Shown here: positions 1,211 to 19,748 of the stretch, one piece after another
How positions within the stretch are numbered: the first letter of the stretch is position 1
Layout: each line of letters opens with the position of its first letter
DNA from: Bacilli bacterium
Lineage (GTDB): Bacteria; Bacillota_I; Bacilli_A; RFN20; CAG-826
Assembly (NCBI GenBank): GCA_045628045.1
Contig: JAZQOV010000011.1
Span: 68,912-132,911, forward strand
Reading direction: 5' to 3'
Length of the DNA stretch: 64,000 nucleotides
Position numbers and translations under genes: made by a program
Notes under the pieces: generated by a model
Seen by the model: only the letters and a program-made list of their open reading frames with translations
Told to the model about the DNA's origin: nothing
Database searches by the model: none

Positions 1211-1310
1211 ATCAATTATTGTAGAAGAATATTTATTGTCTTTCTACTATTTTGTGTCAAAAATAAAATTTTTGCTTGTTTTATATAGATGTGGTGCTAC
1301 TATTTACGTA

Positions 1311-4300
1311 ATGAAAAATAGAAATTTTCTAAAAAATTCTATTCGCTTATTACTCCCTTCTTCGCTTGTTTTGGGTGTACTTTTTGGTGTTTCAAAAGGA
1401 CCAGTTAAAAAGGCTGATGCTTATACTAAAGATGGTCAATTGGCTACAAAAATTGATTTAAAAGATAGTACTGAAGAAGAAATCAAAAACTACTATTCAG
1501 ATTTAAACGGTTTAGACGCTAATCAACTTCAGGGAAATAACCTTCTTAAAAATTTAAAGCCAATTCTTAAGAATGGTCAAAAATATTTCGCTTATGATAG
1601 TAGCGGCGATGACTTATGGAAGATGTATGAAATCATTGATAGAGACTGGGTTAAGTCTCCTGCAAGTGAAATTTCAGGTTATGATCCTTCTACTAAAATA
1701 ATTACTGGTTATAAGTATGGCACTTCTTCTACAAATAAAGGAACAAACCCTTACATTCATGCACTTTATGTAGATAGAAACGTTGATAACCAAACTAGAG
1801 CTTGGGACGATCACCAACAAACTCAATGGGGTATAAACAGAGAACATATATGGCCAAAATCACAAGGTTTTGATGCTGAAGGCGCTGGAGGCGCACGTGG
1901 TGACCCTATGCACTTGTGGGCAGGAAACGGCCGTGTCAATGGAACCGAGCACAATAACAATATGTATGGTTTTGTTGATAAGTCAAAGTCTTATACAAAT
2001 CCATATGATGCAAAAGGATTTAAAAATCTTAGAGATAATTATTCTGGAAAATCTTTAACAGTCCCTTCTTCAACTGATACAGTTTTTGAACCTCAAGACT
2101 CAGATAAAGGCGATATTGCTAGAGCAATTTTTTATATGGTCGCTAGATACAACAACATTGCAGGTAATGACTCAACAATTAACCAAGATAATCCAAATCT
2201 TGCTTTAAAGCAAACCACACAAGCATTAGCAAAGTACACAACTACATCTAGCAACAAACAAACAGGCTACATGGGTCTAATGACCGACCTTTTATATTGG
2301 AATCACTTAGATCCTGTTGATGAATTTGAAATTCATAGAAATAACCTGTTATTTAATAACTACACACATAACAGAAACCCATTTATTGATTACCCAGAAT
2401 GGGCAGACTATATTTGGGGTAAGCCAGTTTATAACGGAAGAAACTATGTTTCATATAGTTCGACACCAACTGGATCTGTAAATTTATCAACAGATGTTAT
2501 TAATGGATTTAAAGGTGAACAACCTCAACAAGTTACAGTAACATCAATTGAAATTACTAAAAAACCAACGAAGTTGGTTTATAATTCTGGTGAAACTTTA
2601 GATACTGCCGGAATGGAAGTTAAGGCTCATTTGAGCAATAACACCACAAGAATTCTTTCTGCAAGTGATTATGCAGTTACTCCAAGCGGAACATTAAAAA
2701 CAACTGATACACAAGCAACTATTACATATGAAGGAAAGAGCGCTAGCTTTGCTATCGCTGTTAAATCTAGTGGTGGATCAACCACAACGCCAGCTGTTGT
2801 TGGCACTGTTTTGTTAGAAGAATCTTTTGCAGATTTTAAAGCTAATGATACTCCGACAAAAAATGGTAGTAGTACTACTGTTTATAACAATGCAACAGTC
2901 ACATATAAATGTAATGATGGCGGATCAGCAACAAAAATTTATAATGAAACTAATGCAGGGGGAACGTCTCCTGAAATTTTAATTTCTAAAAATAACGGAT
3001 CATTTGTTATTTCTAATGTGCCAACAGGAAACGCAACAGAAATGACTCTTACTTATAAAAGTAATAATACAAATAATAGTGTTAATACTACTTCTACAGA
3101 TTATTCCGTTTCTGGTTCGCCTAAAAATTATACTTTTTCATTAAAAAGCGGATGTACTGCTCCTGAGACCATATCAATTTCAATTGATAACTCTAAGGGC
3201 AGCAATACTAGAGTTGACGACATCAAACTTGTGGTTAAAACCGCTGGCACAAGCGGATCGACAAATGTAGATGTTTCTTCAATAACTTTAAATAAAAATT
3301 CAGCTACAATGGAAATAGGTACTTCAGAACAACTATCTGCAACTATAAGTCCAGATGATGCAACAATCAAATTAGTGTCCTGGTCATCATCAAATTCTTC
3401 TGTTGTTGAAGTGTCTGATGAAGGCGAAATTACCGCAAAATCCCCAGGAAATGCCACAATTACTTGTTCGGCCCTTGATGGATCTGGCGTGACTGCTACA
3501 TGCACTATAACTGTAAATGCGCCTGTAACGTTAGAATCGATTACATTATCTGGTGAATATTCAACAGAGTTCTATATTGGAGATCCATTCTCCTCAGATG
3601 GACTTGTTGTTACCGCTAATTATAGTGATAACACTCATATTGATGTCACAGACGACGTTGAAATTACTGGTTATGACATGGAAAGTGAAGGAACACAAAT
3701 TGTTACAGTTTCGTATGGTGAAAAAACAGCAACGTATACAATCGAAGTTAAAGAAAAGGGTCTTGCATCTAATGAAATTATGTTCATTGCATCGCAACTT
3801 GGTTTAGTTAACGGAGATAACCTTGAATCATATACTGATTCTATTGCAACCTTAACATTTGTTAAAAATTCTGGAACACAACCAAAATACTATAGTTCAA
3901 ATTCTTCTTTCCGTGTTTATGCAAAAAATAGTTTTACTATTGTAGGAACAAAAAACATAGCAAAGATTGAATTTGAGATGACTTCTACAGATTATGTTGG
4001 AAGTAACCCTATTACTGCAAATGTAGGAACTTTTTCTAGCAATGTTTGGACTGGTGAAAGTAGCTCAGTAACATTTACAGTTGGCGGATCAAATGGTCAA
4101 AGAAATATTGTTAGTATCAAGGTTACTTATGATGAAAGTTCGGCAGATGTAAAAGTATTATCTAGTGTTAGCTTAAGCGGTACATATAAGACCGAATTCT
4201 TTAGAAACGAAACATTTACATCCGAGGGATTGATTGTGACTGCACATTACACTGACGAAACATCAGCTGTTGTAACTCCAGAATCTATTTCGTCACCAAC

Positions 4301-6611: not shown

Positions 6612-7072
6612 TGAGCGAGATTAAAGTGCTTGTTAACAATTCCAAAGCAAAATTCCTCTATTTTTTAGAGGATTTTTTGGAATGTGGTATTGAACTCAAG
6701 GGTTCTGAGATTAAATCAATTAGGCAAAATGGCGCATCATTAAGAGACTCATATGTCATCTTCAAAAATGAAGAAGCATTCATCTTAAATATGAACATTG
6801 CTCCTTATGAAAATGGTAACAATTTTAATCATGAACCAAATAGAACTCGTAAGCTTCTTCTTCATAAGAATGAAATACTTAAATTAGAGAAGAAGGCTAA
6901 AGAGAAAGTTATGACTATTGTGCCTACTAAAATTTACCTCAAAAAAGGCAAAGTTAAAGTAGAGATCGCTTTAGCGAAAGGTAAGAAATTATTTGATAAA
7001 CGTGAGACCATCAAAAAGCGTGATGATGAACGCATGATGGCAAAGATGAAAAAGGGATTCGAAAGACAATAA
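6611..7072 (+). CDS. smpB: SsrA-binding protein SmpB
   Basis: Full-length 153-aa protein with the typical SmpB sequence (…GIELKGSEIKSIR…LLLHKNEILKL…). Confidence 0.95.
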   Translation: MSEIKVLVNNSKAKFLYFLEDFLECGIELKGSEIKSIRQNGASLRDSYVIFKNEEAFILNMNIAPYENGNNFNHEPNRTRKLLLHKNEILKLEKKAKEKVMTIVPTKIYLKKGKVKVEIALAKGKKLFDKRETIKKRDDERMMAKMKKGFERQ

Positions 7073-7179
7073 TGAATCTCTTTTTTATCACTCATTATTA
7101 ATAAATTAATAACTAATTGCGCGCAAGCGGATTCACTTGCTCACGCACGTATAAATAAGTAAAATATTCCTAATTAATT

Positions 7180-10100
7180 ATGGAAAAAAAGCACAAAATA
7201 TTTTCTTCGATAGGCATTTCTGCGATTGCACTTTTCTCTCTCGTTATTGCAGAACGTGGAATCGATGGATCTTTTTTGTCTGCAAAATTTCGTAATGTAA
7301 GTCAATACGGTTTATCACTTAATTCATCAAACTCATTTGCTGGTGGTAGTGGAACCAAAGTTGTTTATACAAATGGTAGCAATCCAGTTACATTTTCATA
7401 CACTTCTTGTTCTTCATTAAGTGGTGGACACGTAAAAATTAATGAAAACGGAACAATTGCTAACGAAGATCATATTAGATCTATAACTGGTGTTACACCT
7501 GTTTTTACATGCTCCAGCGAAGCAACTAGTTTTGAATTTAGAGCATCATATGATAAAGAAACTTGGGGTCAATGGGGGTCTTTAGCAAGTGGTAAAACAC
7601 GTCAATTTGAATCTGGACCTTATTACTTTGAATTTAAGGCTATTAATGGAGCAGTTAATTTAACTTCTCTTAATTTTGAATATTCATGTGAAAGAAATTG
7701 GACTGTCGAACCAGAAGGTGAAGATAGTGGAACTAAAGAATTTGTGAAAGTTGCATCTGCTTTGGATGACTATGCTGGAACATATTTAATTGTTTGTGAA
7801 TCAGAAGGTGTTGCATTTGATGGTTCTTTAACTAAATCTACAAGCACAGCGATTAGTGCTTCAGGAAATAAATTCGCTGTCACAATCACTGATGGAAAAA
7901 TTGCCTATACAGACGATATTGCTAACAAAGTTTTTGAAATTACTGATGACGGTGAAGACTCTAGTGGTAATATGACTTATCAAATCACATCACATTCGGG
8001 ATATAAAATTACAAATACTGCTGATAGCAATTCTATGAGCGTTTTAGATGTTGATGATGATACAGACTATTATAACTGGATTGGTTTTTGTGATAATGAT
8101 GGATCAGATAATGATTTCTATATTAAGGGAAGCGGAGGATCTTATTTAAGATACAATTCATCTAATACACAGTTCAGATATTACAAATCATCAACTTACA
8201 AAGGACAAGCAGAAGTTTTCTTGTATAAATTATCAAATGGATCTGTCCCGATTGGAATTCCAGAATATGAAGCAAAACTTCAAATAACTGATAATAATTC
8301 CGATAACTATATTTATGGTCATTCATTAAGTGAATCATTTGGAACTGAAGATTTTAAAGCATCTGTTTTAATGTCTAACGGAACTGAAACAGCCATTGAT
8401 CCAAGCCAATTAACTATTGATATTGAAAAAGGTGGTGCACATTATGCATCTAATACCGCGCTTAATAGCGAAGGCACTTATAACGTTACAATTTCATATG
8501 GAGAATTAGCTCCAGTTAAATATCAAATCACAGTAAGTAAGATTGCTGTTGCATCTGTTACTTTTGATAAGAGCTCATTACGCTTGAAACCATCAGAAGA
8601 TTACACACTTACTGCAACTGTATTACCAGAAACTGCATTTGACAAGTCTTTGACTTGGACTTCTACAAATAATTCAGTTGCGACAGTTTCTACATCGGGT
8701 AAAGTTACTGCTGTAGCTGATGGAACTGCAACAATTAAGGCAACCGCAAATAATGGTATATATGCATCTTGTGAAGTTACTGTTGCTTCAGCAGGACTTG
8801 TTGATCCAGGAATGCAAGCAGCTTATGAAGCAGCTATTGCTTTAAGCAATTCCTCCGAATCTAACAGTTCGTATGAATTTACTGGTGTTGTAGTTGGCAC
8901 AAGAACATCAGGATCAAATAAAGATGTGTATGTCCAAAGTGGCGATTATGCACTAGACGTTTATAACAGTGGAAAAACGATGGCTTATAAAGATGAAGTC
9001 ACTGTAAAATCCACATTAACAAAATATTCTGGAATTCCTGAAACAAAGACCATTAAGTCGTTCACAAATAATGGTCAATCAGTGTTGCCGCAAGCAAATG
9101 TAATTAATTCTGCATCAGATTTAGCTGATGCTAAGATTAATACATTATTAAATGCATCTGGAACAATTAAAACATTAAGTGCTTCAGGGTCGAGCATTAC
9201 GGGTTCAAACGATGTTACAATTACTTTAACTACATCAAATGGCGACATTGCTGTTTTTGCAAAGAAGAATTCCTATAGCGGAATAAAGACAACTCTCCAA
9301 GGATTTAAGGTCGGAGATATCATGAATATCGAAAATGGTATTAGAGGTATTTACAATACAACTGACCAAGTTTTACTTGTTTCAGAATCAGTTGTTACAA
9401 AAGGTACTCCAGTACACGTTGATGTTACAGGAATTACAGTTTCTCCAACAAATGTTGATGTCAACGTTAATAGCACAACAACATTAACTGCAACAATCGC
9501 ACCAGCAAACGCATCTAATAAAGGTGTTGTTTGGTCTTCAAGCAACTCAAATGTCGCGTCTGTTAATCAAAATGGTGTTGTTTCAGGTCATATTGCAGGA
9601 CAGTCTGCAACTATTTACGCAAAATCAGCTGAGAATAATTCAATTTCGGCTTCATGTACAGTTAATGTTAAAGCAATATCAGTTCAATCCGTGTCTTTAG
9701 ATCAAAATACTGCAACTATAGCTATTGGTGAAGAATTGACATTAACTCATACAATCTCACCATCTACTGCATCTAACCAAAATGTAACATGGTCAAGTAA
9801 TGATCAATCTGTTGCAACTGTTAGCAATGGTGTTGTTTCGGCGTTAGCTGAAGGTGAGGCAACTATTACAGTTAAGACTGATGATGGAAATCACACAGCA
9901 AGTTGTGTTGTTACTGTTACTGAAAAATCAGCAGTAAAAGAATGGGTTTTAGTTACTACGGCATCACAATTAATTAAAGATAACTTATATGTTATTGCTT
10001 GTAATTCTAAAGGCACAACTGCCGGAGATATTAGCAGTTCAATCATGGCTTCATTAGGTTCTACTTTTAGCAATGACAAATCAAAAATTACAACATTAAA

Positions 10101-12723
10101 TAATGATACAGTTCAATTAAAACTTGGTGGTACTACTGATAAATGGACATTTGCCAATTCAGATGGTGATTTATTAGGTGCTACTGCAGTAAAGAAACTT
10201 GCATGGGGCAGCGGCACAACAACTTGGAAGATTACATTCTCTGGAAATGATTGTAACTTAACAAATACATCATCAAGTTATGGAAGCATGTCATATAACT
10301 CAAGCAGTCCAAGATTTACTACATATAGTGCAACACAAACTGCAATTCAACTTTATACTCTAACTGGTGGTGCAACTCCAACTCCAGAACCAACATTAGA
10401 ATCAATTAAGGTTGATTCAAGTTCTCATAGAACATTCACCGTAGGTGATACTTTCGCTAAAGAAACCATTATGGCTGTTTATTCAGACGGTAATGAAGTT
10501 GATGTTACAAGCGAAGCAGCATTCTCTGGTTACAACATGAATTCTGCAGGAACTCAAACAGTCTCAGTTTCATATGGCGGAAAATCAACTTCATATCAAA
10601 TTACTGTTAATGCAAAAGTTGTAACATTAACAAGCATTACTGTTTCTGAAAATCATAGAACATTTAATGTAGGCGATACTTTCGTTGGAGAAACTGTCAC
10701 TGCTTACTATAGCGACGGATCTCATAAAGAAGTAAATGCAACATTCTCTGGTTATGACATGAGCACTGCTGGTACATATACCGTAAGTGTTTCATACACT
10801 GAAGGTGGAATCACAAAAGACACATCTTATACAATTACAGTTAAATCTTCAGGATCTGGTGGTGGCGGAGCATCAGGAACACATACAATTTTATCTTCCG
10901 ATGTGCCAACTTCATATGAAACAGATGGTGAAAAAACTGTAGATGATATCACATATGTGTTTAATCAAGTTGCTAATTCATATACACCTGGTTATATGCA
11001 ATGTAAGAAGAGCGTTTCTTATATTTACAACAAAACCGCTATTGCCGGTTTAAAGTCTATTAGTATTAATACAAGTAGCAAATCTTGGGGTGGCTCAGTT
11101 TATTATGGAACTAGTGAAGAACCATCTGCAAATAAAGCAACTTTAAGTGGTGGAAAATATTCCATTCCTTCTGGAAACTCATATTTTAATATTGTTACAA
11201 ATGGATCAACTGGTTATATTGAATCAATTGATATTGAATACTCAACAACTCCTGTTAATCCAACAGCTATTTCAATAAGTGGTGAAAATGAATTAACTCC
11301 AGGTTCAAGTACACAATTATCGCTTTCATTTAGCCCAAGCAACTGCAATGTTAAAGATGTTACTTGGTCTTCAAATAATACTTCAATCACAGTTGATCAA
11401 ACTGGAAAAGTTACAGTTTCAAGTACCGCTAAAGTTGGTGCTACTGCAACTATTACAGCAACTTCAAGAGAAGTTGGAACAGTAAAAGGAACATTCACTA
11501 TTACTGTTGTAGATAAACCGGTTGTTCAAAAAGATGCGTGGACAATGCTCATTTATATGTGCGGTGCTGATTTGGAGAGTGGGTATGCATCCAATAATGA
11601 TGGCTGCGCAACAGATGACTTAAAAGAGATCTATTCTTTGAGGAATAGTTTGCCTGACGATGTGAACATCGTTGTTCAAGCCGGCGGCGCTAAGGCTTGG
11701 TCATCTGAATATTCTTCCGTTATTAGCAAGGATAAAAGAAATAGATTCCACCTTACAAAATCTGGTTATGTAAAGGATTCACAAGATAGTAGAGTTAATA
11801 TGGGGTCAGAATCTTCTTTGGAAGACTTTGTTGAGTGGGGTTTAGAAACTTACCCGGCCGAAAAGGTTGGATTGGTTTTCTGGGATCACGGTAGTGCTAT
11901 GGGAGGTTGCTGTTTTGATGAACAATATAGCAGTGATGGACTTACTCCAGCTGAAGTAGCATCAGCAGTGCCAACAGCAATTTCAAAATCTGGATACAAT
12001 CAAAATCTCGAGTTTATTGGATATGACTGCTGCTTGATGTCTATACAAGACATTGCCGGATTAAATGCTCAATATGCAAATTATATGATTGCTTCGCAAG
12101 AATCTGAATGGGGTTATGGTTGGTCATATGATAAATTTGTTGATAATTTAATGAGTAAGAAATCAACAACCACGATTCTAAAGGCTTGCGTTGATGGTTT
12201 CTCTCAAGATACAACTTCTTCCTATAATAACTGGGGTGATCCAAATGATCAAACCTTAGCGTATTACAACTTACAAAATTGGGCTGCATACGAAAATGCT
12301 TGGGAAGATTTTGCTGACTACTTAAGCACTAGCGTTATTAAATCGTCTAGCAACTGGACTACATTTACCAAAGTGGTAAACCAAGCTCAAAAATACGGGT
12401 ATGATAGTGATTCAAATTATCAAAAGTATAATGGAGGTTATTGCTATGATATTTTCGATGTTAAGGATTTCCTTAACAAGATTAAATCTAGCAACGATTA
12501 TAAGAATAATAGTTCACTAATGACCAAGGTATCTACAATTGAAACAGCATACACTGGGTTAGGTATTTATAGTAAGTGTGGGTCTGCCGCTGGTAATTCA
12601 AACGGACTATGTTTCTTCTGCCCATTATCTGGTTATAATGAGATAGATGGAGAATATGCCTCAGCAAATACAAGATTTAAAGAATGGCGATCACTTTGCG
12701 TTGAATACGGTAAATGGTATTAA
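7180..12723 (+). CDS. giant surface protein: Big_2 domains, Ig-like repeats, shared DUF-like domains, C-terminal clostripain-like (peptidase C11) domain
   Basis: Signal peptide MEKKHKIFSSIGISAIALFSLVIA. Several Big_2-like segments (…VTFDKSSLRLKPSEDYTLTATVLPE…, …VTGITVSPTNVDVNVNSTTTLTATIAP…). Repeats like those of the preceding gene (SIKVDSSSHRTFTVGDTF…YQITV). The C-terminal ~400 aa contain WTMLIYMCGADLE…, WDHGSAMGG (His) and FIGYDCCLMS (Cys), the clostripain family signature. Confidence 0.75.
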   Translation: MEKKHKIFSSIGISAIALFSLVIAERGIDGSFLSAKFRNVSQYGLSLNSSNSFAGGSGTKVVYTNGSNPVTFSYTSCSSLSGGHVKINENGTIANEDHIRSITGVTPVFTCSSEATSFEFRASYDKETWGQWGSLASGKTRQFESGPYYFEFKAINGAVNLTSLNFEYSCERNWTVEPEGEDSGTKEFVKVASALDDYAGTYLIVCESEGVAFDGSLTKSTSTAISASGNKFAVTITDGKIAYTDDIANKVFEITDDGEDSSGNMTYQITSHSGYKITNTADSNSMSVLDVDDDTDYYNWIGFCDNDGSDNDFYIKGSGGSYLRYNSSNTQFRYYKSSTYKGQAEVFLYKLSNGSVPIGIPEYEAKLQITDNNSDNYIYGHSLSESFGTEDFKASVLMSNGTETAIDPSQLTIDIEKGGAHYASNTALNSEGTYNVTISYGELAPVKYQITVSKIAVASVTFDKSSLRLKPSEDYTLTATVLPETAFDKSLTWTSTNNSVATVSTSGKVTAVADGTATIKATANNGIYASCEVTVASAGLVDPGMQAAYEAAIALSNSSESNSSYEFTGVVVGTRTSGSNKDVYVQSGDYALDVYNSGKTMAYKDEVTVKSTLTKYSGIPETKTIKSFTNNGQSVLPQANVINSASDLADAKINTLLNASGTIKTLSASGSSITGSNDVTITLTTSNGDIAVFAKKNSYSGIKTTLQGFKVGDIMNIENGIRGIYNTTDQVLLVSESVVTKGTPVHVDVTGITVSPTNVDVNVNSTTTLTATIAPANASNKGVVWSSSNSNVASVNQNGVVSGHIAGQSATIYAKSAENNSISASCTVNVKAISVQSVSLDQNTATIAIGEELTLTHTISPSTASNQNVTWSSNDQSVATVSNGVVSALAEGEATITVKTDDGNHTASCVVTVTEKSAVKEWVLVTTASQLIKDNLYVIACNSKGTTAGDISSSIMASLGSTFSNDKSKITTLNNDTVQLKLGGTTDKWTFANSDGDLLGATAVKKLAWGSGTTTWKITFSGNDCNLTNTSSSYGSMSYNSSSPRFTTYSATQTAIQLYTLTGGATPTPEPTLESIKVDSSSHRTFTVGDTFAKETIMAVYSDGNEVDVTSEAAFSGYNMNSAGTQTVSVSYGGKSTSYQITVNAKVVTLTSITVSENHRTFNVGDTFVGETVTAYYSDGSHKEVNATFSGYDMSTAGTYTVSVSYTEGGITKDTSYTITVKSSGSGGGGASGTHTILSSDVPTSYETDGEKTVDDITYVFNQVANSYTPGYMQCKKSVSYIYNKTAIAGLKSISINTSSKSWGGSVYYGTSEEPSANKATLSGGKYSIPSGNSYFNIVTNGSTGYIESIDIEYSTTPVNPTAISISGENELTPGSSTQLSLSFSPSNCNVKDVTWSSNNTSITVDQTGKVTVSSTAKVGATATITATSREVGTVKGTFTITVVDKPVVQKDAWTMLIYMCGADLESGYASNNDGCATDDLKEIYSLRNSLPDDVNIVVQAGGAKAWSSEYSSVISKDKRNRFHLTKSGYVKDSQDSRVNMGSESSLEDFVEWGLETYPAEKVGLVFWDHGSAMGGCCFDEQYSSDGLTPAEVASAVPTAISKSGYNQNLEFIGYDCCLMSIQDIAGLNAQYANYMIASQESEWGYGWSYDKFVDNLMSKKSTTTILKACVDGFSQDTTSSYNNWGDPNDQTLAYYNLQNWAAYENAWEDFADYLSTSVIKSSSNWTTFTKVVNQAQKYGYDSDSNYQKYNGGYCYDIFDVKDFLNKIKSSNDYKNNSSLMTKVSTIETAYTGLGIYSKCGSAAGNSNGLCFFCPLSGYNEIDGEYASANTRFKEWRSLCVEYGKWY

Positions 12724-13500: not shown

Positions 13501-14172
13501 ATGAAAAAATTTAAAACATTATTTACTATCTTATGCCTCGGTGGTCTTTGGGGATTACTTGAAGCTACACTTGGAACCTTACTTCATCTTCCAGTAATTC
13601 ATGAAGTTGTTTTCTTTGGTTCTACAGCAGTTTTACTTCCAATTGCCTATTTAATTACTGGCAGAGCATATAAAGTTACTGGCAGAGCCAGAGCAGCCTT
13701 ATATGTTGGCTTAGTAGCAGCCGCTATTAAATCAGTAACATTTGCATTTGGACTTCCAGTTCAATATGTCATTAACCCAATGGTTTCTATTCTTTTAGAA
13801 TCATCAGTTATGGCTGTTGCATTTAAAGTTAGCAAACCTGCAAATGTTTGTTCACCTAAATCATTCGTTACATTTGTTGTTGCATCTTTAGCATTTAGAG
13901 TCATTTATGTTGGCTATTCAATGGCTACAGCAGAACCATTCGGATCAGCATATTTAGTCGCTGGTTCAGTTATGTGGAATGCCATTATTGACTACGTTAT
14001 TGTTGCTCTTGGAATCTCATGTATTTACGCTGTTATTTACATGCTTGTTGGAACACTCTTAACACGCAAAATATCCGTAAAATCCCTGGAAAAAGTCCAA
14101 CATTTTGCCTATTCTCCAGTATTTTCTATTGTGATGATTGTAACTGCAGTTGTCGCAACAATATTGTTATAA
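13501..14172 (+). CDS. integral membrane protein (about 6 TM), possible substrate-capture/transport component
   Basis: The likely start is MKKFKTLFTILCLGG at 13501; the hairpin leader above sits immediately upstream of it. The track start at 13402 lies inside the structured leader. Hydrophobic throughout. Confidence 0.55.
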   Translation: MKKFKTLFTILCLGGLWGLLEATLGTLLHLPVIHEVVFFGSTAVLLPIAYLITGRAYKVTGRARAALYVGLVAAAIKSVTFAFGLPVQYVINPMVSILLESSVMAVAFKVSKPANVCSPKSFVTFVVASLAFRVIYVGYSMATAEPFGSAYLVAGSVMWNAIIDYVIVALGISCIYAVIYMLVGTLLTRKISVKSLEKVQHFAYSPVFSIVMIVTAVVATILL

Positions 14173-14185
14173 TTTGAATTATATT

Positions 14186-14213
14186 TTGAAATTTATTTTC
14201 GCTGTGTTATATT
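14186..14213 (+). promoter_or_regulatory. promoter of antisense sRNA-1
   Basis: TTGAAA, 16 nt, extended -10 TGtTATATT. Confidence 0.45.
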
Positions 14214-14220
14214 ATTTGTG

Positions 14221-14287
14221 ACGGGTACTGGTTTGTGCACGTAATAAAAGGATGTCAGGTTGCTGCCTGGCATCCTTTCTTCATTTT
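14221..14287 (+). ncRNA. candidate type I antitoxin sRNA-1 (~65 nt)
   Basis: Starts about 7 nt after the -10. Ends at the GGATGTCAGG-ttgctg-CCTGGCATCC hairpin plus TTTCTTCATTTT (14250-14287). The 5' 13 nt (GGGTACTGGTTTG, 14223-14235) are repeated at 14298-14310 inside the convergent mRNA. Confidence 0.45.
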
Positions 14288-14312
14288 AAGCAAAGGCGGG
14301 TACTGGTTTGCG

Positions 14313-14431
14313 CTAGTTGCTATTAAGCATTACGAGTAACACTAGGATAACAACTAGCACCAGAAGGTACTCGATAGCAAGTATCCTCCCTTCTGACCAA
14401 GCACCCGCGGTTGCCCGTAGATCTTGATCAT
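14313..14431 (-). CDS. candidate type I toxin locus 1: leader ORF MIKIYGQPRVLGQKGGYLLSSTFWC (14354-14431) overlapping a conserved hydrophobic frame …IEYLLVLVVILVLLVMLNSN* (14313-14375, -1 frame)
   Basis: GGAGG RBS 5 nt before the ATG. The hydrophobic frame is conserved in all three units with many synonymous changes but has no ATG/GTG/TTG. A conserved AUC codon sits 9 nt after an internal GGAGG. Confidence 0.45.
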
Positions 14432-14453
14432 ACCTGCCTCCATTTAAAACTAT

Positions 14454-14512
14454 CCGATTTTATTAATCGGCGAGCACATTATTTCACAACGTATATTCCT
14501 CTTGTCAAGAGG
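14454..14512 (-). promoter_or_regulatory. toxin-1 promoter (TTGACA, spacer, TGAAATAAT), 15-bp palindrome CCTCTTGWCAAGAGG over the -35, and 5'-UTR hairpin
   Basis: -35 TTGACA at 14503-14508 on the minus strand. Palindrome at 14498-14512. -10 at 14481-14489. UTR hairpin CCGATT-aataa-AATCGG at 14454-14470. Confidence 0.5.
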
Positions 14513-14648
14513 TCAAAAAAGTTACCTATATTAATATAGAAACTAAGATTTACTTATAACTCTAGAACTATACTTATATTAATATTAGGTAAAAAATTTT
14601 TAATTTTTGTTTATATATTGTTTCTAGTACTGGTGAATTGTTTTTTCT

Positions 14649-14676
14649 TTGTAAATAGTTTTGAATGTGTTATATT
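14649..14676 (+). promoter_or_regulatory. promoter of antisense sRNA-2
   Basis: TTGTAA, 16 nt, extended -10 TGtTATATT. Confidence 0.45.
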
Positions 14677-14684
14677 ATAAGCGA

Positions 14685-14749
14685 TAGATACTTAGGCGCT
14701 ATCAAATGAAAAGATATCAGGTTCCAGCCCGATATCTTTTTTTCGTTTT
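14685..14749 (+). ncRNA. candidate type I antitoxin sRNA-2
   Basis: The 5' GATAGATACTTAGGCG (14683-14698) is repeated at 14757-14771. Terminator GATATCAGG-ttccag-CCCGATATC plus T7CGTTTT (14711-14749). Confidence 0.45.
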
Positions 14750-14775
14750 GAACTCGATAGATACTTAGACGTTAG

Positions 14776-14903
14776 TTATTGCTTAGAATTATCTTGAATT
14801 ATTTCAAGTAAAACAAGGACAATAACTAGCATAACCAGATACTGGATGGCATACGCCCTCCTCTCTGACTAAGCACCCATCGAATTCTCTGGATCTTAGC
14901 CAT
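14776..14903 (-). CDS. candidate type I toxin locus 2: leader ORF MAKIQRIRWVLSQRGGRMPSSIWLC (14826-14903) overlapping the hydrophobic frame …AIQYLVMLVIVLVLLEIIQDNSKQ* (ends 14776)
   Basis: Same architecture as unit 1. A frame-3 TAG at leader positions 33-35 limits the hydrophobic frame to downstream of the leader's middle. Confidence 0.45.
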
Positions 14904-14948
14904 ATCTATCTCCTCCAAAACTATCCGATTCTATTAATCGGCGTGCAT

Positions 14949-14983
14949 ATTATTTCACACTGCATATTCCCCTTGTCAAGAGG
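14949..14983 (-). promoter_or_regulatory. toxin-2 promoter with palindromic operator CCCCTTGTCAAGAGG
   Basis: TTGACA -35 inside the palindrome (14969-14983). -10 TGAAATAAT at 14949-14957. UTR hairpin CCGATTaatagAATCGG just downstream. Confidence 0.5.
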
Positions 14984-15119
14984 TCAAAAAAGTTACCTAT
15001 ATTAATATAGAAACTAAGATTTACTTATAACTCTAGAACTATACTTATATTAATATTAGGTAAAAAATTTCTAATTTTTGTTTATGTATTGTTTCTAGTA
15101 CTGGTGAATTGTTTTTTCT

Positions 15120-15147
15120 TTGTTAATACTTGTGAATGTGCTATATT
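15120..15147 (+). promoter_or_regulatory. promoter of antisense sRNA-3
   Basis: TTGTTA, 16 nt, extended -10 TGcTATATT. Confidence 0.45.
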
Positions 15148-15153
15148 ATATTC

Positions 15154-15221
15154 GACAGGTACTTAGTAGACTAGTCAAATGAAAAGATATCAGGTTGCAG
15201 CCCGATATCTTTTTTTCATTT
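15154..15221 (+). ncRNA. candidate type I antitoxin sRNA-3
   Basis: The 5' CAGGTACTTAGTAGACTA (15156-15173) is repeated exactly at 15231-15248. Terminator GATATCAGG-ttgcag-CCCGATATC plus T-run (15186-15221). Confidence 0.45.
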
Positions 15222-15245
15222 AGGACTCAGCAGGTACTTAGTAGA

Positions 15246-15364
15246 CTAATTATCTATCAGCATTAAAAGTAACACCAATATGATAATTAGTACAATAAGG
15301 TATTGGATGTCATAAGACCTCCTCCCTGACTAAGCACCCTTTGAGCTCGTTGGATCTTAGCCAT
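15246..15364 (-). CDS. candidate type I toxin locus 3: leader ORF MAKIQRAQRVLSQGGGLMTSNTLLY (15287-15364) overlapping the hydrophobic frame …DIQYLIVLIIILVLLLMLIDN* (ends 15246)
   Basis: Same architecture. GGAGG RBS. Internal GGAGG-N4-ATG (frame 1) and GGAGG-N9-ATC (hydrophobic frame). Confidence 0.45.
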
Positions 15365-15409
15365 ACCTGCCTCCTGCTAAACTATCCGATTTTTAAAATC
15401 GGCGTGCAT

Positions 15410-15444
15410 ATTATTTCATAGGTTATATTCCCCTTGTCAAGAGG
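15410..15444 (-). promoter_or_regulatory. toxin-3 promoter with palindromic operator CCCCTTGTCAAGAGG
   Basis: -10 TGAAATAAT at 15410-15418. Palindrome with -35 at 15430-15444. UTR hairpin CCGATTTTTAAAAATCGG. Confidence 0.5.
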
Positions 15445-15591
15445 ACTAAAAAGTTACCTTATATTAATATAACTCCATTGGATTTATTTACTAAGTAAAG
15501 ATTTACTATATTAATAATAAGGTAAAAATTTAAAAAATTTGGTTCCTATTATATATTTAGTGCATAAAATCGAACTTTTTCTTTGAAAAGA

Positions 15592-15620
15592 TTGTTTTAA
15601 TGCGCTCGCTCGTGTATGAT
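15592..15620 (+). promoter_or_regulatory. promoter of the purine-catabolism operon
   Basis: TTGTTT, 17 nt, TGtTATGAT. RBS AGGAG precedes the ATG at 15648. Confidence 0.4.
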
Positions 15621-15647
15621 ATTTATGCACATACATAGGAGAACTTA

Positions 15648-16217
15648 ATGGTTGGTATTGTCCTTGCGGGTGGTTATTCATCCCGAGCCAAAGTTAATAA
15701 GCTCCTCCTGGAGGTAGATCGTAAACCTCTTATTCGTCATACAATTGACACTTTGAAACCTTTCTGTAAAAAGGTTTTTGTTGTGACAGGAAAATATCAT
15801 GATGAACTTAGTCAAGTTTTAGATGATGTTGAGATTGTTTGTAACAAAGATTTTGATTTAGGAATGTTTTCTAGCGTGCTTGCAGGAATTAATGCTGCTC
15901 TAGGCGAAGATGTTTTACTTATCCCAGGTGATATTTCTAATGTGGCTAAAACCACTATTGAAGCTTTGCTTTACGGAAATAAAGACATCCGTATTCCTTC
16001 TTATGAAGGAATTACAGGACATCCTGTTTTTATTTCGAAGAAATATGTTGAACTTTTATCTCATGAACCAGTTAGTTCCAGATTATGTGATTTTCTTAAC
16101 GCGCACGAGTGTGCAAAGGAAGTTATCAGTGTAAATGACCCTTTTATCAATTTTGATATTGATACGATTGAGGATTACAACAGATTTATTAATACAAGAA
16201 AGGAAGTTACTTTATGA
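15648..16217 (+). CDS. MobA-like NTP-transferase (molybdenum cofactor cytidylyl/guanylyltransferase family)
   Basis: N-terminal GIVLAGGYSSR…NKLLL motif. Overlaps the next gene by 4 nt, in an operon with the Mo-hydroxylase subunits. Confidence 0.7.
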   Translation: MVGIVLAGGYSSRAKVNKLLLEVDRKPLIRHTIDTLKPFCKKVFVVTGKYHDELSQVLDDVEIVCNKDFDLGMFSSVLAGINAALGEDVLLIPGDISNVAKTTIEALLYGNKDIRIPSYEGITGHPVFISKKYVELLSHEPVSSRLCDFLNAHECAKEVISVNDPFINFDIDTIEDYNRFINTRKEVTL

Positions 16218-16981
16218 AAGCAAAATCTTTCATTAGACCTTCTTCTTTAGAAGAGGCCTATAAGCTTGTTAAAGCTTCACCAAAGAACAAAATTGTCGCT
16301 GGTGGACTTTGGCTTAAAAAAGGAAACGCTGAAGCAGAAACTCTCATTGATATTTCATCTCTTGGCCTAGACAAAATCTTAGACAAAAAAGAATACGTTG
16401 AAGTTGGCGCAATGGTTTCCCAAAGAGAACTTGAAAAATCTTCACTTGTTCCTGAAGTAATTAGAGAAGCAACTGCATTAGTTATGGGACCAGCATTCCG
16501 TAATATCGCGTCAGTTGGAGGATCAGTTTATGGAAAATATGGTTTTTCTGACATTGTCACAGCATTACTTGTATACAAAGTAGAACTCGTTTTCTACCCA
16601 GAAGCAGTAATCACACTTGATGAATACGTCAAAAAACCTGGATTTTATGATGGAATTTTAACTCACATAAGAATTTACAAAGATAATCGCAAGGCTTTCT
16701 TTAAGAAAGTTGAAATTACTGCACTTGATTATCCAATTCTTAACGTTGCAGTTTCCGAAGGAAAAGAATGCAAAATTGTTATTGGTTCACGCCCACTTGT
16801 TGCATGCGTTTGCGAGCAAGCAAGCGCACTTGCTAGCAAAGGTGAAAAGGATTTTGAAAAGATCGCTGCTTTAGCAGTTGAAGAAACAAAATTCGGTGAT
16901 TCAATCGCCACCAAAGGTGAATATAGAAAACAACTTGCACTCACTTATGTAAGACGTGGTCTTGAGGAGGTTAACAAATAA
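16214..16981 (+). CDS. molybdenum hydroxylase FAD-binding (medium) subunit, CoxM/XdhB-like
   Basis: 255 aa with a CO dehydrogenase flavoprotein-like fold. Operon context. Confidence 0.7.
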   Translation: MKAKSFIRPSSLEEAYKLVKASPKNKIVAGGLWLKKGNAEAETLIDISSLGLDKILDKKEYVEVGAMVSQRELEKSSLVPEVIREATALVMGPAFRNIASVGGSVYGKYGFSDIVTALLVYKVELVFYPEAVITLDEYVKKPGFYDGILTHIRIYKDNRKAFFKKVEITALDYPILNVAVSEGKECKIVIGSRPLVACVCEQASALASKGEKDFEKIAALAVEETKFGDSIATKGEYRKQLALTYVRRGLEEVNK

Positions 16982-17433
16982 TGTTAGTCAAATTCAATCT
17001 CAACGGACTTGATATCGAAGTCAATGTAAAACCAGGCGAGTATCTTTTAGATACACTTAGAGCTTATGGTGTTAAATCAGTCAAAAAAGGCTGTGATGGT
17101 TCCGCATGCGGAGTCTGTACAGTTCTTCTTGATGATAAACCAGTTTTATCTTGCTCAGTTTTAACTGCAAAAGTTGAAGGTCACAAAGTGACCACAGTTG
17201 AAGCAATTCAAGATGAAGCTGCTAAATTATCCGAATGCTTCTCTCGTGAAGGTGCAGATCAGTGCGGCTTCTGTAATGCAGCATTCGCACTTATGGTGCA
17301 CGCACTCAAAAAAGAAAATCCACATCCAACAGATGAGGAAATCAAAGATTATATGGTCGGAAACCTTTGCAGATGCACAGGTTATCAATCTCAACAAAAA
17401 GCAATTAAAGCTTATTTAGGAGGTAAGAAATAA
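16981..17433 (+). CDS. molybdenum hydroxylase [2Fe-2S] small subunit
   Basis: CDGSACGVCTV and …CGFCN…NLCRCTGY cysteine motifs. Confidence 0.85.
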   Translation: MLVKFNLNGLDIEVNVKPGEYLLDTLRAYGVKSVKKGCDGSACGVCTVLLDDKPVLSCSVLTAKVEGHKVTTVEAIQDEAAKLSECFSREGADQCGFCNAAFALMVHALKKENPHPTDEEIKDYMVGNLCRCTGYQSQQKAIKAYLGGKK

Positions 17434-19748
17434 TGAAAAAGAATTTCAAAGTTGTAAACAACTTAACTCCTAGTGTTGATGGAAAAGGTCTTATGCAAGG
17501 TCGTGCTGTTTACACAGACGACATTGCTCCTCAAGGTGCTTTAATTGTTAAAATTTTAAGATCACCACATGCTTTCGCAAGAATTAAATCAATTGACGTT
17601 AGTGAAGCTGAAAAACTTCCTGGCGTTGCATGTATTTTAACCAAGGATAACGTCCCACACGTTTCATTTACACGTGCAGGACAAGGTTATCCTGAACCAT
17701 CACCATACGATAAATTCATCTTGGATGAATATGTTCGTTATGTTGGTGATGAAGTTGCTGCAGTTGCAGCAGTTGATGAAGAAACTGCTTTAGCAGCAAT
17801 GAAGCTCATCAAAGTTGATTATGAGGTTTTAAAACCAGTCCTCAACTTTGAAGAAGCTTTTGAAAACGAATCAGTTATCCACCCAGAAGATGGAATCCAT
17901 GACATGTTCCCAATTGGTTTTGAACCAAAGAAGAATGTTGCAGCATCTTATGAGATGGAAGTTGGCAACGTCGAAGAAGAATTAAAGAAATCTGAAGTTG
18001 TTGTCGAAGACACATTCTATTCACAAGCACAAGCTCACGCTATGATCGAGCCACACACTTGTAATGCACGCTTAGACGAGCACAATAGACTTGTTGTTTA
18101 TTCCACAACTCAAACTCCATATCATATGCGTAGAATCATCTGCAAGACCTTAGGTCTTCCAGTTGATAGAGTTAGAGTCATTAAACCAAGAGTTGGTGGT
18201 GGCTTTGGTGGAAAACAAGCTTTCCATGGTGAAATGTTTGTCTCCCTTGTTACTTTAAGAACAAATAAACCTGCAAAATGTGTTTATACTCGTGAAGAAG
18301 TATTTGGTTGTTCTTATACGAGACACCCAATGAGAATCTCACTTAGAGTTGGTGCAAATAAAGATGGTGTTATTAACGCAATCGATTGCCGCACTCTTTC
18401 AGATACAGGTGCTTATGGTGAACACGCTTTAACAGTCTTTATGATTGTTGGTTCTAAAGTTTTGCCACTTTATAACAAAGTTAAAGCTGTTAAATTCGGT
18501 GGAAGAGTTGTTTACACGAACCATGTATCTGCGGGCGCATATCGTGGTTATGGTGCTATTCAAGGTAACTACGCAGTTGAATCCATCATTGATGAACTTG
18601 CGGAAAAGCTTCATATGGATCCAATTAAGCTTCGTGAAATTAACTCCATGAAGGAAAAAGAAACTTCCCCAATCTTTAAGATTATGGGTGAAGGTACCGA
18701 AGGTACAGAAATGATTATGGAAAGCTGCAAGCTTCCATATTGTATTAAACGTGGTCGTGAACTTATGGATTGGGACAAGAAATACCCAGTTAAGAAAGTT
18801 GGAGATCACAAAATTAGATCAGTTGGTTGCGCAATTGCCATGCAAGGTTCAGGAATTCCATTCTTAGATATGGGTTCTTGTACAATTAAACTTAATGATG
18901 GTGGCTCATACATGGTCACCGTTGGTGCTACTGATATTGGACAAGGCTCTGATACAGTTATTTCTCAAATTGTTGCAGAAGCTCTTCAAACAACAATGGA
19001 CAAAGTCATTATCTATTCATCTGATACAGACTTAACTCCATACGATTGTGGTGCTTACGCTTCTTCAACAACCTATGTTTCTGGTAACGCAGCATATAAT
19101 GCTGCTTGCAAGATGAGAGAAAGACTTCTTAAAGAAGCTGCAGTTGAACTCAAAGTAAAACCAGATGAGGTTGAATTTGATGGAACAACATTTAAAGCTG
19201 GCAAGAAGTCAATCTCACTTGTTGATTTATCAACAGGAAGACTTTATAACAACAATACACATCAAATTGCTGTTACAGAATCTTATCATGGTCATGTTTC
19301 TCCACCTCCATTTATGGCAGCATTTGGAGAATTCGAATTTGACACAGAAACTTACGAATACAAGATGATTAAGTACGTTACAGTTACTGACTGTGGTACA
19401 ACAATTAACCCAGCATTGGCCAAAGGCCAAGTTGAAGGTGGTATTATCCAAGGTTATGGCATGGCTTCAAGTGAAGCGGTGCTTTATAGCTCAAATGGAA
19501 AACTACTTTCAAATACTTTTGATACTTATCACATTCCAACTGTCAAAGAAGTTGGTGAGCTTGTTACTGAATTTGCTGATTCATATGAACCAACAGGTCC
19601 ATTTGGCGCAAAATCAGTTGGTGAAATTGGTATTGATACACCTCCAGCAGTACTCTGCAATGCAGTTTACAATGCTTTCGGTGTAAGAATTCATCATTTA
19701 CCAATCACACCAGAAAAAATCTTTGAAACAATGAAGGCTAAAAAATAA
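17433..19748 (+). CDS. xanthine dehydrogenase-family molybdopterin-binding large subunit
   Basis: 771 aa. Aldehyde oxidase/xanthine dehydrogenase a/b hammerhead and MoCo-binding regions (GGGFGGK, …GQGS…). Confidence 0.85.
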   Translation: MKKNFKVVNNLTPSVDGKGLMQGRAVYTDDIAPQGALIVKILRSPHAFARIKSIDVSEAEKLPGVACILTKDNVPHVSFTRAGQGYPEPSPYDKFILDEYVRYVGDEVAAVAAVDEETALAAMKLIKVDYEVLKPVLNFEEAFENESVIHPEDGIHDMFPIGFEPKKNVAASYEMEVGNVEEELKKSEVVVEDTFYSQAQAHAMIEPHTCNARLDEHNRLVVYSTTQTPYHMRRIICKTLGLPVDRVRVIKPRVGGGFGGKQAFHGEMFVSLVTLRTNKPAKCVYTREEVFGCSYTRHPMRISLRVGANKDGVINAIDCRTLSDTGAYGEHALTVFMIVGSKVLPLYNKVKAVKFGGRVVYTNHVSAGAYRGYGAIQGNYAVESIIDELAEKLHMDPIKLREINSMKEKETSPIFKIMGEGTEGTEMIMESCKLPYCIKRGRELMDWDKKYPVKKVGDHKIRSVGCAIAMQGSGIPFLDMGSCTIKLNDGGSYMVTVGATDIGQGSDTVISQIVAEALQTTMDKVIIYSSDTDLTPYDCGAYASSTTYVSGNAAYNAACKMRERLLKEAAVELKVKPDEVEFDGTTFKAGKKSISLVDLSTGRLYNNNTHQIAVTESYHGHVSPPPFMAAFGEFEFDTETYEYKMIKYVTVTDCGTTINPALAKGQVEGGIIQGYGMASSEAVLYSSNGKLLSNTFDTYHIPTVKEVGELVTEFADSYEPTGPFGAKSVGEIGIDTPPAVLCNAVYNAFGVRIHHLPITPEKIFETMKAKK

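Follow-up and report, generated by a model that had tools for sequence, protein, structure and literature searches.

A tandem array of predicted type I toxin-antitoxin-like cassettes with a leader reading frame in an uncultured gut Bacilli bacterium

What might be encoded by a piece of bacterial DNA that holds no long open reading frame (ORF) and that occurs three times in a row? The question is raised by positions 14185-15596 of the window, the 64,000-nucleotide stretch analysed here (Bacilli bacterium, GenBank assembly GCA_045628045.1, contig JAZQOV010000011.1, positions 68,912 to 132,911), in which three diverged units are followed by a partial fourth remnant. Each unit can be read from its sequence as a self-contained type I toxin-antitoxin (TA)-like cassette, with a predicted toxin, a leader and control through a 3' element termed E3, and we give this reading a probability of about 0.65. 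As in type I TA systems generally, a small hydrophobic peptide frame lies on an mRNA that is the predicted target of a cis-encoded antisense RNA. Because convergent RNAs with a common terminator, a co-varying repeat, a conserved hydrophobic frame and free-standing recurrence come together here, type I TA is the best-supported reading, although the support is partial and the likeness to par loci is one of layout only. Such loci are hard to find because their peptides and RNAs are short and diverge fast.

Tandem units, predicted transcripts and relatives

The units, of about 465 bp each, lie head-to-tail at a start-to-start spacing of 461-473 bp, and the mean column identity among them is 82%. 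The largest ORF in the array does not exceed 56 aa; on the left the array is bordered by the gene for a 256-aa membrane protein, described as an energy-coupling factor (ECF) S-component or membrane-protein gene, which ends at 14172, and on the right by a MobA-like gene, which starts at 15648. The motif GGTGCTTNGTCAGNNNGGAGG occurs three times, versus 0.05 occurrences expected by chance. Three diverged tandem units of this size, in a region free of long ORFs, had been described in an earlier note on this DNA, and the description holds.

Two convergent promoters and a common bidirectional intrinsic terminator define each unit, and this arrangement is kept in 5/5 complete copies (the relatives are described below). 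On the plus strand, the promoter of a small RNA (sRNA) consists of TTGAAA, TTGTAA or TTGTTA, a spacer of 16 nt and the extended -10 element TGnTATATT; it is followed by about 30 nt of unit-specific sequence and then by the terminator hairpin, which is G+C-poor and has U-runs on both strands. Folding of the predicted plus-strand RNAs, about 66 nt long, gives a short 5' region and the terminator hairpin. The minus-strand promoter, read by eye, combines TTGACA and the extended -10 element TGaAATAAT across an over-long spacer of 19 nt, and was missed by a consensus promoter scan because the spacer exceeds 18 nt. In minus-strand order there follow a 5' hairpin (CCGAUU..AAUCGG at the start of the mRNA, DNA CCGATT..AATCGG, in each unit), a first Shine-Dalgarno (SD) sequence, SD1 (GGAGG), an ATG 5 nt on, the invariant element E2 (GGGTGCTTRGTCAG; RNA GGGUGCUURGUCAG), a second SD sequence, SD2 (GGAGG), the hydrophobic frame (frame b) and the terminator. 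The predicted minus-strand RNAs of about 230 nt fold far better than shuffled sequences (z = -7.3, -5.8 and -6.1). Thus the claims of an mRNA of about 230 nt with a 5' hairpin, of an extended -10 promoter for a convergent sRNA of about 65 nt and of one terminator serving both transcripts are all borne out at the level of prediction. Of the strong minus-strand promoter that had been proposed, the TTGACA element stands; the promoter is not, however, a simple one, given its 19-nt spacer and an AATAAT preceded by TG.

In the following list DR-A and DR-B are the two copies of a direct repeat around each terminator, ORF a is the leader ORF opened by SD1, and the start codon given for frame b is putative.

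14185-15596: whole array, three tandem units and a partial fourth sRNA-promoter remnant
Unit 1
14186-14213, plus strand: sRNA promoter (TTGAAA, 16 nt, TGnTATATT)
14220-14287, plus strand: predicted sRNA of about 68 nt (DR-A 14222-14238; terminator hairpin 14247-14278)
14247-14278: bidirectional intrinsic terminator
14297-14313, minus strand: DR-B (E3), predicted sRNA target, directly after the frame-b stop codon
14313-14375, minus strand: hydrophobic frame b, from the invariant ATC to the stop codon, (I/M)EYLLVLVVILVLLVMLNSN
14354-14431, minus strand: leader ORF a, 25 codons, MIKIYGQPRVLGQKGGYLLSSTFWC (SD1 GGAGG 14441-14437)
14385-14406, minus strand: E2 (GGGTGCTTGGTCAG, 14406-14393) and internal SD2 GGAGG (14389-14385)
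14243-14472, minus strand: predicted toxin mRNA of about 230 nt (5' hairpin 14470-14454)
14478-14508, minus strand: promoter of the predicted toxin mRNA (TTGACA 14508-14503, 19 nt, TGaAATAAT 14486-14478)
Unit 2
14649-14676, plus strand: sRNA promoter
14683-14748, plus strand: predicted sRNA of about 66 nt (DR-A 14682-14698; terminator 14709-14740)
14755-14771, minus strand: DR-B (E3), predicted sRNA target
14776-14847, minus strand: hydrophobic frame b from ATC, (I/M)QYLVMLVIVLVLLEIIQDNSKQ
14826-14903, minus strand: leader ORF a, MAKIQRIRWVLSQRGGRMPSSIWLC
14705-14943, minus strand: predicted toxin mRNA (5' hairpin 14941-14925; E2 14878-14865; SD2 14861-14857)
14949-14979, minus strand: promoter of the predicted toxin mRNA (TTGACA 14979-14974; TGaAATAAT 14957-14949)
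Unit 3
15120-15147, plus strand: sRNA promoter
15154-15221, plus strand: predicted sRNA of about 68 nt (DR-A 15156-15173; terminator 15182-15213)
15231-15248, minus strand: DR-B (E3), predicted sRNA target, frame-b stop codon included
15246-15308, minus strand: hydrophobic frame b from ATC, (I/M)QYLIVLIIILVLLLMLIDN
15287-15364, minus strand: leader ORF a, MAKIQRAQRVLSQGGGLMTSNTLLY
15178-15404, minus strand: predicted toxin mRNA (5' hairpin 15402-15386; E2 15339-15326; SD2 15322-15318)
15410-15440, minus strand: promoter of the predicted toxin mRNA (TTGACA 15440-15435; TGaAATAAT 15418-15410)

A pattern scan of 185,579 species-representative genomes returned 11 matches, three of which are true relatives that carry the same parts in the same order as the units of the window; the other eight (Acidimicrobiales/Acidimicrobiaceae, Gallionella, Saccharibacteria) were left uninspected and are assumed to be chance matches or an unrelated gene. 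All three relatives are from the horse gut, L005 and L008 from one metagenome-assembled genome (MAG) of a horse-faeces Bacilli bacterium and L007 from Candidatus Fiminaster equi. L005 adjoins rpsF-ssb-rpsR, and L008 (2598-3475 region) lies in a small TA cluster, next to an HTH_3 antitoxin-like gene and a type II toxin gene of the YafQ/ParE family. L007 is orthologous to L008 and is split between the 5' hairpin and SD1 by a TnpB-only IS605-family element (L007 ~6272-7800), whose 465-aa ORF matches OrfB_IS605 and a Cas12f1-like TNB domain, leaving the predicted toxin frame cut off from its promoter; this frame also carries a TAC-to-TAA nonsense codon, with ORF a intact. The module thus recurs as a free-standing cassette in differing genomic contexts. 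The pattern scan gave four matches in metagenomes, all judged to be chance and located in unrelated DNA of 41-63% G+C, and none in viral contigs, and a blastn search in distant mode found no match among plasmid and phage records.

A leader ORF and an overlapping hydrophobic frame

Two reading frames are conserved on the minus-strand RNA. SD1 and its ATG open ORF a, which has exactly 25 codons and a conserved stop position in 6/6 copies, and which in its non-overlapping part has the lowest ratio of non-synonymous to synonymous change (pN/pS, 0.51) of the frames there; its C-terminal 8 residues are poorly conserved. Relative to ORF a, frame b lies in the -1 frame; the two overlap over about the last 10 codons of ORF a, whose stop codon fixes the overlapping frame-b Leu codon as CTA in every copy. 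From its first conserved Ile codon, frame b reads IEYLLVLVVILVLLVMLNSN in unit 1, IQYLVMLVIVLVLLEIIQDNSKQ in unit 2 and IQYLIVLIIILVLLLMLIDN in unit 3. The core of this peptide has a hydropathy of 3.4-3.9, and the peptides have no Trp and a net charge of 0 to -1.

That frame b is coding is suggested by several measures. At 0.43, the pN/pS of frame b is the lowest of the three frames (0.86 and 3.7 for the others), the changes are conservative (I/L/V/M) or synonymous, with the amino acids conserved across four independent copies, and one Leu position is spelled CTA, CTT, TTG and CTG across copies. Frame b also contains runs of 11-15 consecutive xTx codons, matched in at most 4 of 20000 shuffles. 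The earlier note had argued function from synonymous changes, and part of this argument survives; some of these changes, among them TAC/TAT at a Tyr codon in unit 2, are also compensatory for RNA pairing. A second E3-like element lies in the first frame-b codons, on the minus strand some 10-17 nt downstream of the ATG or TTG that follows SD2 (e.g. 14364-14371 and 14836-14843), the sequence being GUACCU in most copies but GUAUCU in unit 2. Its changes are mirrored by those of the SD1-AUG1 spacer (AGGUAU versus AGAUAU; AUG1 is the start codon of ORF a), with which the element is predicted to pair when E3 is blocked, and the 'synonymous' Tyr change is therefore a compensatory RNA change too.

How frame b would be entered is the less familiar part of the anatomy. 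The hydrophobic frame of the earlier note is real, but the GGAGG assigned to it as a ribosome-binding site (RBS) is not linked to it in the manner proposed: the ATG (TTG in unit 1) found 4 nt after SD2 belongs to frame a, and a ribosome starting there would meet the ORF a stop after 8 codons. Likewise, where a single GGAGG and ORF had been listed, a second GGAGG and ATG upstream, which the note missed, open the 25-codon leader. Exactly 9 nt after SD2 stands an invariant Ile codon of frame b; it is ATC in all three units of the window, and the relatives have ATT and ATA. Initiation at this AUH codon, a -1 shift from ORF a and re-initiation are possible ways into frame b. For re-initiation, a GTG or ATG overlapping the ORF a stop codon is present in units 1 and 2 and absent from unit 3, L005 and L008; with no conserved start at this stop, the candidate was set aside as unlikely.

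The -1 shift, if used, would replace the short peptide by a fusion toxin of about 39 residues that runs from ORF a (MAKIQRALRVLSQ...) into frame b, with GGAGG and a downstream hairpin as stimulators. The relation between the two frames and the missing start codon of frame b would suit such a product, in which a transmembrane segment would come after a basic N-terminus, as in many type I toxins; in addition, GGAGG lies ~12-25 nt upstream and a 20-bp hairpin sits at the ORF a stop, a geometry like that of dnaX frameshifting. Yet the stretch from SD2 to the ORF a stop contains no conserved slippery heptamer (X XXY YYZ) in any copy, on which ground a canonical -1 frameshift was rejected. The tetramer 'G GGA' is found in five copies and not in unit 2, and an in-frame TAG of frame b inside GGGTGCTTAGTCAG, present in 5/6 copies, limits the shift window to about 14 codons. 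The fusion toxin is thus decidedly unlikely.

Unit-specific pairing and a proposed leader switch

The element that ties the two RNAs of a unit together was overlooked in the earlier note. A direct repeat of 17-18 nt stands on both sides of each terminator (14222-14238/14297-14313, 14682-14698/14755-14771 and 15156-15173/15231-15248), and because the two RNAs are read in opposite directions, the 5' part of the sRNA is complementary to the mRNA copy, E3, which begins at or just after the frame-b stop codon and runs into the 3' untranslated region (UTR). The complementary terminator arms (about 43 nt) provide a second region of pairing. Duplexes between the 5' part of the sRNA and the cognate mRNA are predicted at -34.1 (unit 1), -25.4 (unit 2) and -32.4 (unit 3) kcal/mol, as against -13 to -22 kcal/mol for non-cognate pairs in the window, and the best site is nt 146-171 of mRNAs of 224-237 nt, at the stop codon and 3' UTR. 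A site over SD2 and the start region was also considered and rejected, the duplexes there being weak and not cognate-specific, as is pairing with the first 110 nt. Inspection of the terminator loops by eye for a conserved YUNR U-turn showed one in unit 2 only.

Divergence is greatest in the recognition elements (16-62% identity), whereas promoters, 5' hairpin and E2 are 81-93% identical. Since the direct repeats differ between units and co-vary within each, pairing is predicted to be cognate-specific, and with a different recognition sequence in every unit each sRNA should control its own mRNA only. Divergence between units together with co-variation within them is the pattern that would be expected of orthogonal antisense pairs.

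A mosaic of another kind is seen upstream of the minus-strand promoters, where the spacer of unit 1 (14509-14646) is 98% identical (117/119) to that of unit 2 (14980-15117), despite an identity of only 35-72% in most transcribed parts of these units. This mosaic suggests recent gene conversion or recombination limited to the spacer.

Recent recombination and a tandem layout would also be features of decaying duplication relics, such as an integration site or a dead mobile element. To this account the data are a poor fit, and it is scarcely credible: promoters, hairpins, ORF a length, SD sequences and terminators are all retained in diverged copies, the repeat copies co-vary within units, RNA pairs show compensatory change, and intact homologues exist in other genomes.

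The consensus fold of five mRNAs (units 1, 2 and 3, L005 and L008), calculated with RNAalifold, comprises the 5' hairpin, a long-range helix in which the SD1 region pairs with E3, a hairpin between the AUG1 region (E1b) and E2, a local hairpin over SD2, a 20-bp hairpin within frame b that starts at the ORF a stop codon and has 6 compensatory pairs, and the terminator. In this structure 92% of cells are paired, versus 34-46% with slid partners, and 15 pairs are changed on both sides, versus 1-3 when slid; the observed values were reached in 0/500 shuffles. The 5'-3' fold-back (columns 22-41 with 181-199) covers the leader RBS in silico and has 4 compensatory pairs, exemplified by unit 2, where the SD1-AUG1 spacer GAUAGAUAU faces GUAUCUAUC in E3, the other copies having GGCAGGUAU with GUACCUGC. 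An alternative helix joins E3 with E2 and the sequence just upstream of it (-23.6 to -29 kcal/mol); it is the minimum-energy fold in unit 2, L005 and L008, and leaves SD1-AUG1 open.

Could these folds amount simply to a structured non-coding or leader-peptide RNA, with the 25-residue ORF a peptide as its sole product and the hydrophobic frame an untranslated by-product of a U-rich hairpin arm? Frame b does lack a start codon and does coincide with the 20-bp hairpin and its compensatory pairs, ORF a has a good SD sequence, an ATG and a conserved length, and L007 retains ORF a and not frame b. An RNA helix, however, imposes no 3-nt periodicity, and yet the xTx codons run on without interruption; the changes in frame b are of the conservative or synonymous kind, with a pN/pS below those of the other two frames; and ORF a is poorly conserved over its last 8 residues. 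We consider an untranslated frame b very improbable.

Returning to the type I TA reading, a mechanism can be proposed. The minus-strand mRNA, stable and highly folded, would encode a very hydrophobic peptide of about 20 residues, which we infer to be a membrane-damaging toxin, and the plus-strand sRNA of about 66 nt, ended at the common terminator, would pair with it through the terminator arms and the unit-specific repeat. E3 is the predicted intramolecular partner of both the leader SD1-AUG1 region and E2. Binding of the sRNA to E3 would free E2 to form a hairpin over AUG1, and the leader would go untranslated, as folding and covariation suggest. When the bound sRNA was mimicked in folding by blocking E3 and the terminator, the E1b-E2 hairpin formed in 5/5 mRNAs, and the cost of opening SD1-AUG1 rose in 4/5, from 2.0 to 5.4, 7.4 to 10.7, 4.1 to 11.2 and 4.6 to 11.5 kcal/mol. 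Opening SD2 takes 7-10 kcal/mol with or without this block; SD2 would always be locked in its local hairpin, with a weak AUH codon 9 nt downstream as the start of the toxin frame. Since SD2 would be locked and the start weak, toxin synthesis would need a ribosome translating the leader to open the region, as with mok for hok, and without a ribosome on the leader SD2 and the AUH start would remain closed. ORF a and frame b would then be translationally coupled in a mok-like manner, by analogy. The long sRNA-mRNA duplex is probably an RNase III substrate too, by analogy with txpA/RatA and bsrG/SR4. The full proposal, in which a par-like, 3'-binding sRNA acts allosterically through an E1/E2/E3 switch on a mok-like leader, with the toxin frame entered at AUH or by frameshift and with three orthogonal copies, is tentative and itself more doubtful than probable.

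Known systems, surroundings and significance

The layout invites comparison with par (RNA I/Fst-RNA II of Enterococcus faecalis pAD1). Par loci have convergent promoters, a common bidirectional terminator and direct repeats transcribed both ways, and their paralogues are expected to be orthogonal (PMC7472228). The cassette shares the convergent promoters, the common terminator with complementary stem-loops, the oppositely transcribed direct repeat as a second complementary region with poor conservation from locus to locus, and intramolecular structures that would sequester the mRNA 5' end and SD sequences (5' hairpin, SD2 hairpin, SD1-E3 helix). Unlike par, it has one repeat rather than DRa and DRb, a leader ORF and a toxin frame without a canonical start, and the mRNA copy of its repeat sits at the stop codon and in the 3' UTR instead of covering the toxin SD and start codon, whereas repeat-mediated pairing in par covers the toxin RBS and start codon (PMC7472228). 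The Fst signature combines a P/D/S/T-XXX-G motif in a transmembrane helix with a conserved Trp and a C-terminal tail of high charge (PMC7472228); the frame-b peptide has no PXXXG, no Trp and no charged tail, and matches no Fst/Ldr model of Pfam or NCBIfam. The layout of par, txpA and bsrG loci, which the earlier note had recognized, stands; in Fst signature, position of the repeat target and matches to family models the cassette departs from the Fst family.

A different set of features recalls bsrG/SR4 and txpA/RatA of Bacillus subtilis, where the 3' ends of the convergent RNAs also overlap and the antitoxin target is far from the RBS. There antitoxin pairing is confined to the 3' end of the toxin mRNA, SR4 binding remodels bsrG mRNA and lengthens the RBS stem, and RNase III cleaves the SR4 and RatA duplexes (PMC4147584). 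In silico, the SD1-AUG1 region here is likewise predicted to tighten when the 3' element is blocked. The contiguous overlap is of about 43 nt of terminator plus a non-contiguous repeat, as opposed to 75-120 nt in those systems; the toxins and RNAs have no sequence similarity, and the toxins there are of 38-59 aa, BsrG being 38 aa long, and start with ATG.

The leader finds its parallel in hok/mok/sok, and in the proposed ldrX/ldrD, where a leader ORF also overlaps the toxin frame and the toxin SD is sequestered; in hok/mok/sok a long-range 5'-3' fold-back covers the leader RBS, as predicted in silico here (PMC4147584). Precedents for other parts of the proposal are likewise on record: mok-dependent translation of hok, RatA-driven decay and tandem copies of LDR (PMC4147584). 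By contrast, hok is a Gram-negative system without homology to frame b, and the target of Sok is the start region of mok, at the 5' end, whereas that of the sRNA here would be the 3' fold-back element itself.

Arrays of type I TA loci are familiar, and the LDR, SIB and zor/orz repeats of E. coli resemble the array in that a type I locus occurs on the chromosome in tandem or in multiple copies (PMC4147584). They differ from it in that the antisense RNA overlaps the ORF or 5' UTR, they belong to another phylum, and frame b matches no Ibs/Ldr model. Antisense RNAs of these repeats recognize only the toxin mRNA of their own locus, and the Ibs peptides, with 18-19 very hydrophobic residues, are similar in make-up to the frame-b peptide.

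No known family accommodates the cassette. At the gathering threshold Rfam found nothing in the whole window, and at E<=10 on 14000-15800 only RatA (E = 2.8; 24.2 bits, the gathering score being 49) and an sRNA of Brucella (E = 3.5); the terminator hairpin was responsible for both matches. Among Pfam and NCBIfam models, both peptide frames matched no toxin family at E<=10, the sole row being a chance match to the ComGC pilin (E = 1.1), and a frame-b profile run against 1.84 billion protein representatives gave only three weak multi-stretch matches to proteins of 120-416 aa. Membership of the Fst/Ldr or TxpA/BsrG families, as the earlier note had contemplated, therefore fails in Pfam and NCBIfam, and in Rfam at its gathering threshold.

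The lack of a family match would also suit a harmless or regulatory small membrane peptide under antisense control, with the same anatomy and with its copies kept for a membrane function, outside any TA system. So would the ordinary chromosomal contexts, from the ECF S-component or membrane-protein gene to the MobA-like gene in the window and rpsF-ssb-rpsR at L005. On the other hand, toxic products are typically kept in check at several levels of translation, as this peptide would be by two sequestered SD sequences, a start codon that is weak or absent and a cognate antisense RNA; the copies are multiple and variable in location, one of them adjoining a YafQ type II TA locus, and one copy has been inactivated by a nonsense codon. 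Such a harmless peptide is accordingly rated as unlikely.

Several points weigh against a type I TA cassette with the mechanism outlined above. No known toxin or antitoxin family matches it in the Rfam, Pfam, NCBIfam and profile searches. Upstream of the conserved hydrophobic stretch, frame b lacks ATG, GTG and TTG in every copy, and the one pointer to AUH initiation is the invariant Ile codon at an ideal SD spacing. With its 14-15 residues, the hydrophobic core would make a short membrane span. Some of what is conserved in frame b falls within RNA helices, namely the anti-SD element, the E3-like UACCU element and the long coding-region hairpin, and covariation and pN/pS are drawn from six copies, of which about four are independent, and thus from few events. 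Minimum-free-energy folds also vary by unit, SD1 being closed in free units 1 and 3 and open in unit 2, L005 and L008; in unit 1 the opening cost of SD1-AUG1 is unchanged by blocking, so that the predicted switch has no effect there. Moreover, the loss of E3 to the sRNA could in itself remove the 5'-3' helix over SD1, which would mean activation and not repression.

Just upstream of the minus-strand -35 element in every module lies an AT-rich inverted repeat with arms of 18-20 nt that are ~29-32 nt apart:

14523-14592: inverted repeat of unit 1, TTACCTATATTAATATAG ... CTTATATTAATATTAGGTAA
14994-15063: second inverted repeat of the window
15454-15525: third inverted repeat of the window
L008 2461-2529, L007 6125-6193 and L005 1513-1579: inverted repeats of the relatives

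A run of five or six T follows the repeat in the window, L007 and L008, and L005 retains the inverted symmetry in another sequence (a perfect 18-nt repeat, TTACATATATTAAAAATA). The repeat may act as an operator, or as a terminator that insulates the predicted toxin gene from read-through. At 15576-15596, directly upstream of the MobA-like gene, a 21-nt fourth partial copy of the sRNA -35 region (TTTTTCTTTGAAAAGATTGTT) is the edge of a duplicated unit, and may now be part of the promoter of the MobA-like operon.

Farther out, two very large ORFs on the plus strand upstream of the array (1197-6611 and 7180-12723; 1804 and 1847 aa) may encode surface proteins, the 1847-aa product having a hydrophobic N-terminal stretch, a possible signal peptide, followed by Ser/Thr-rich repetitive sequence. 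Downstream (15648-19748 and beyond) the MobA-like nucleotidyltransferase gene, identified by Pfam, is accompanied by that of a 150-aa protein with a 2Fe-2S ferredoxin-type domain (Fer2_2), neighboured by 255-aa and 771-aa ORFs, a set that may form a molybdoenzyme cluster of the xanthine-dehydrogenase family. When the proteins of the flanking genes were looked up by exact identity, one had no match and the other only two uninformative 1-kb Logan contigs.

Taken from its sequence, the cassette would represent a previously undescribed toxin/RNA family of uncultured gut Bacilli, with a leader ORF and no canonical toxin start codon, and one that standard annotation cannot see because the toxin frame lacks ATG, GTG and TTG. 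The three neighbouring units would offer a natural case of antisense specificity diverging while the control architecture is retained, and the array would be useful for studying the evolution of orthogonal RNA-RNA pairs and for designing them. If leader coupling and AUH initiation hold true, hok/mok-style coupling would exist in Firmicutes also, and an sRNA that binds at the 3' UTR could control a start site 150 nt away.

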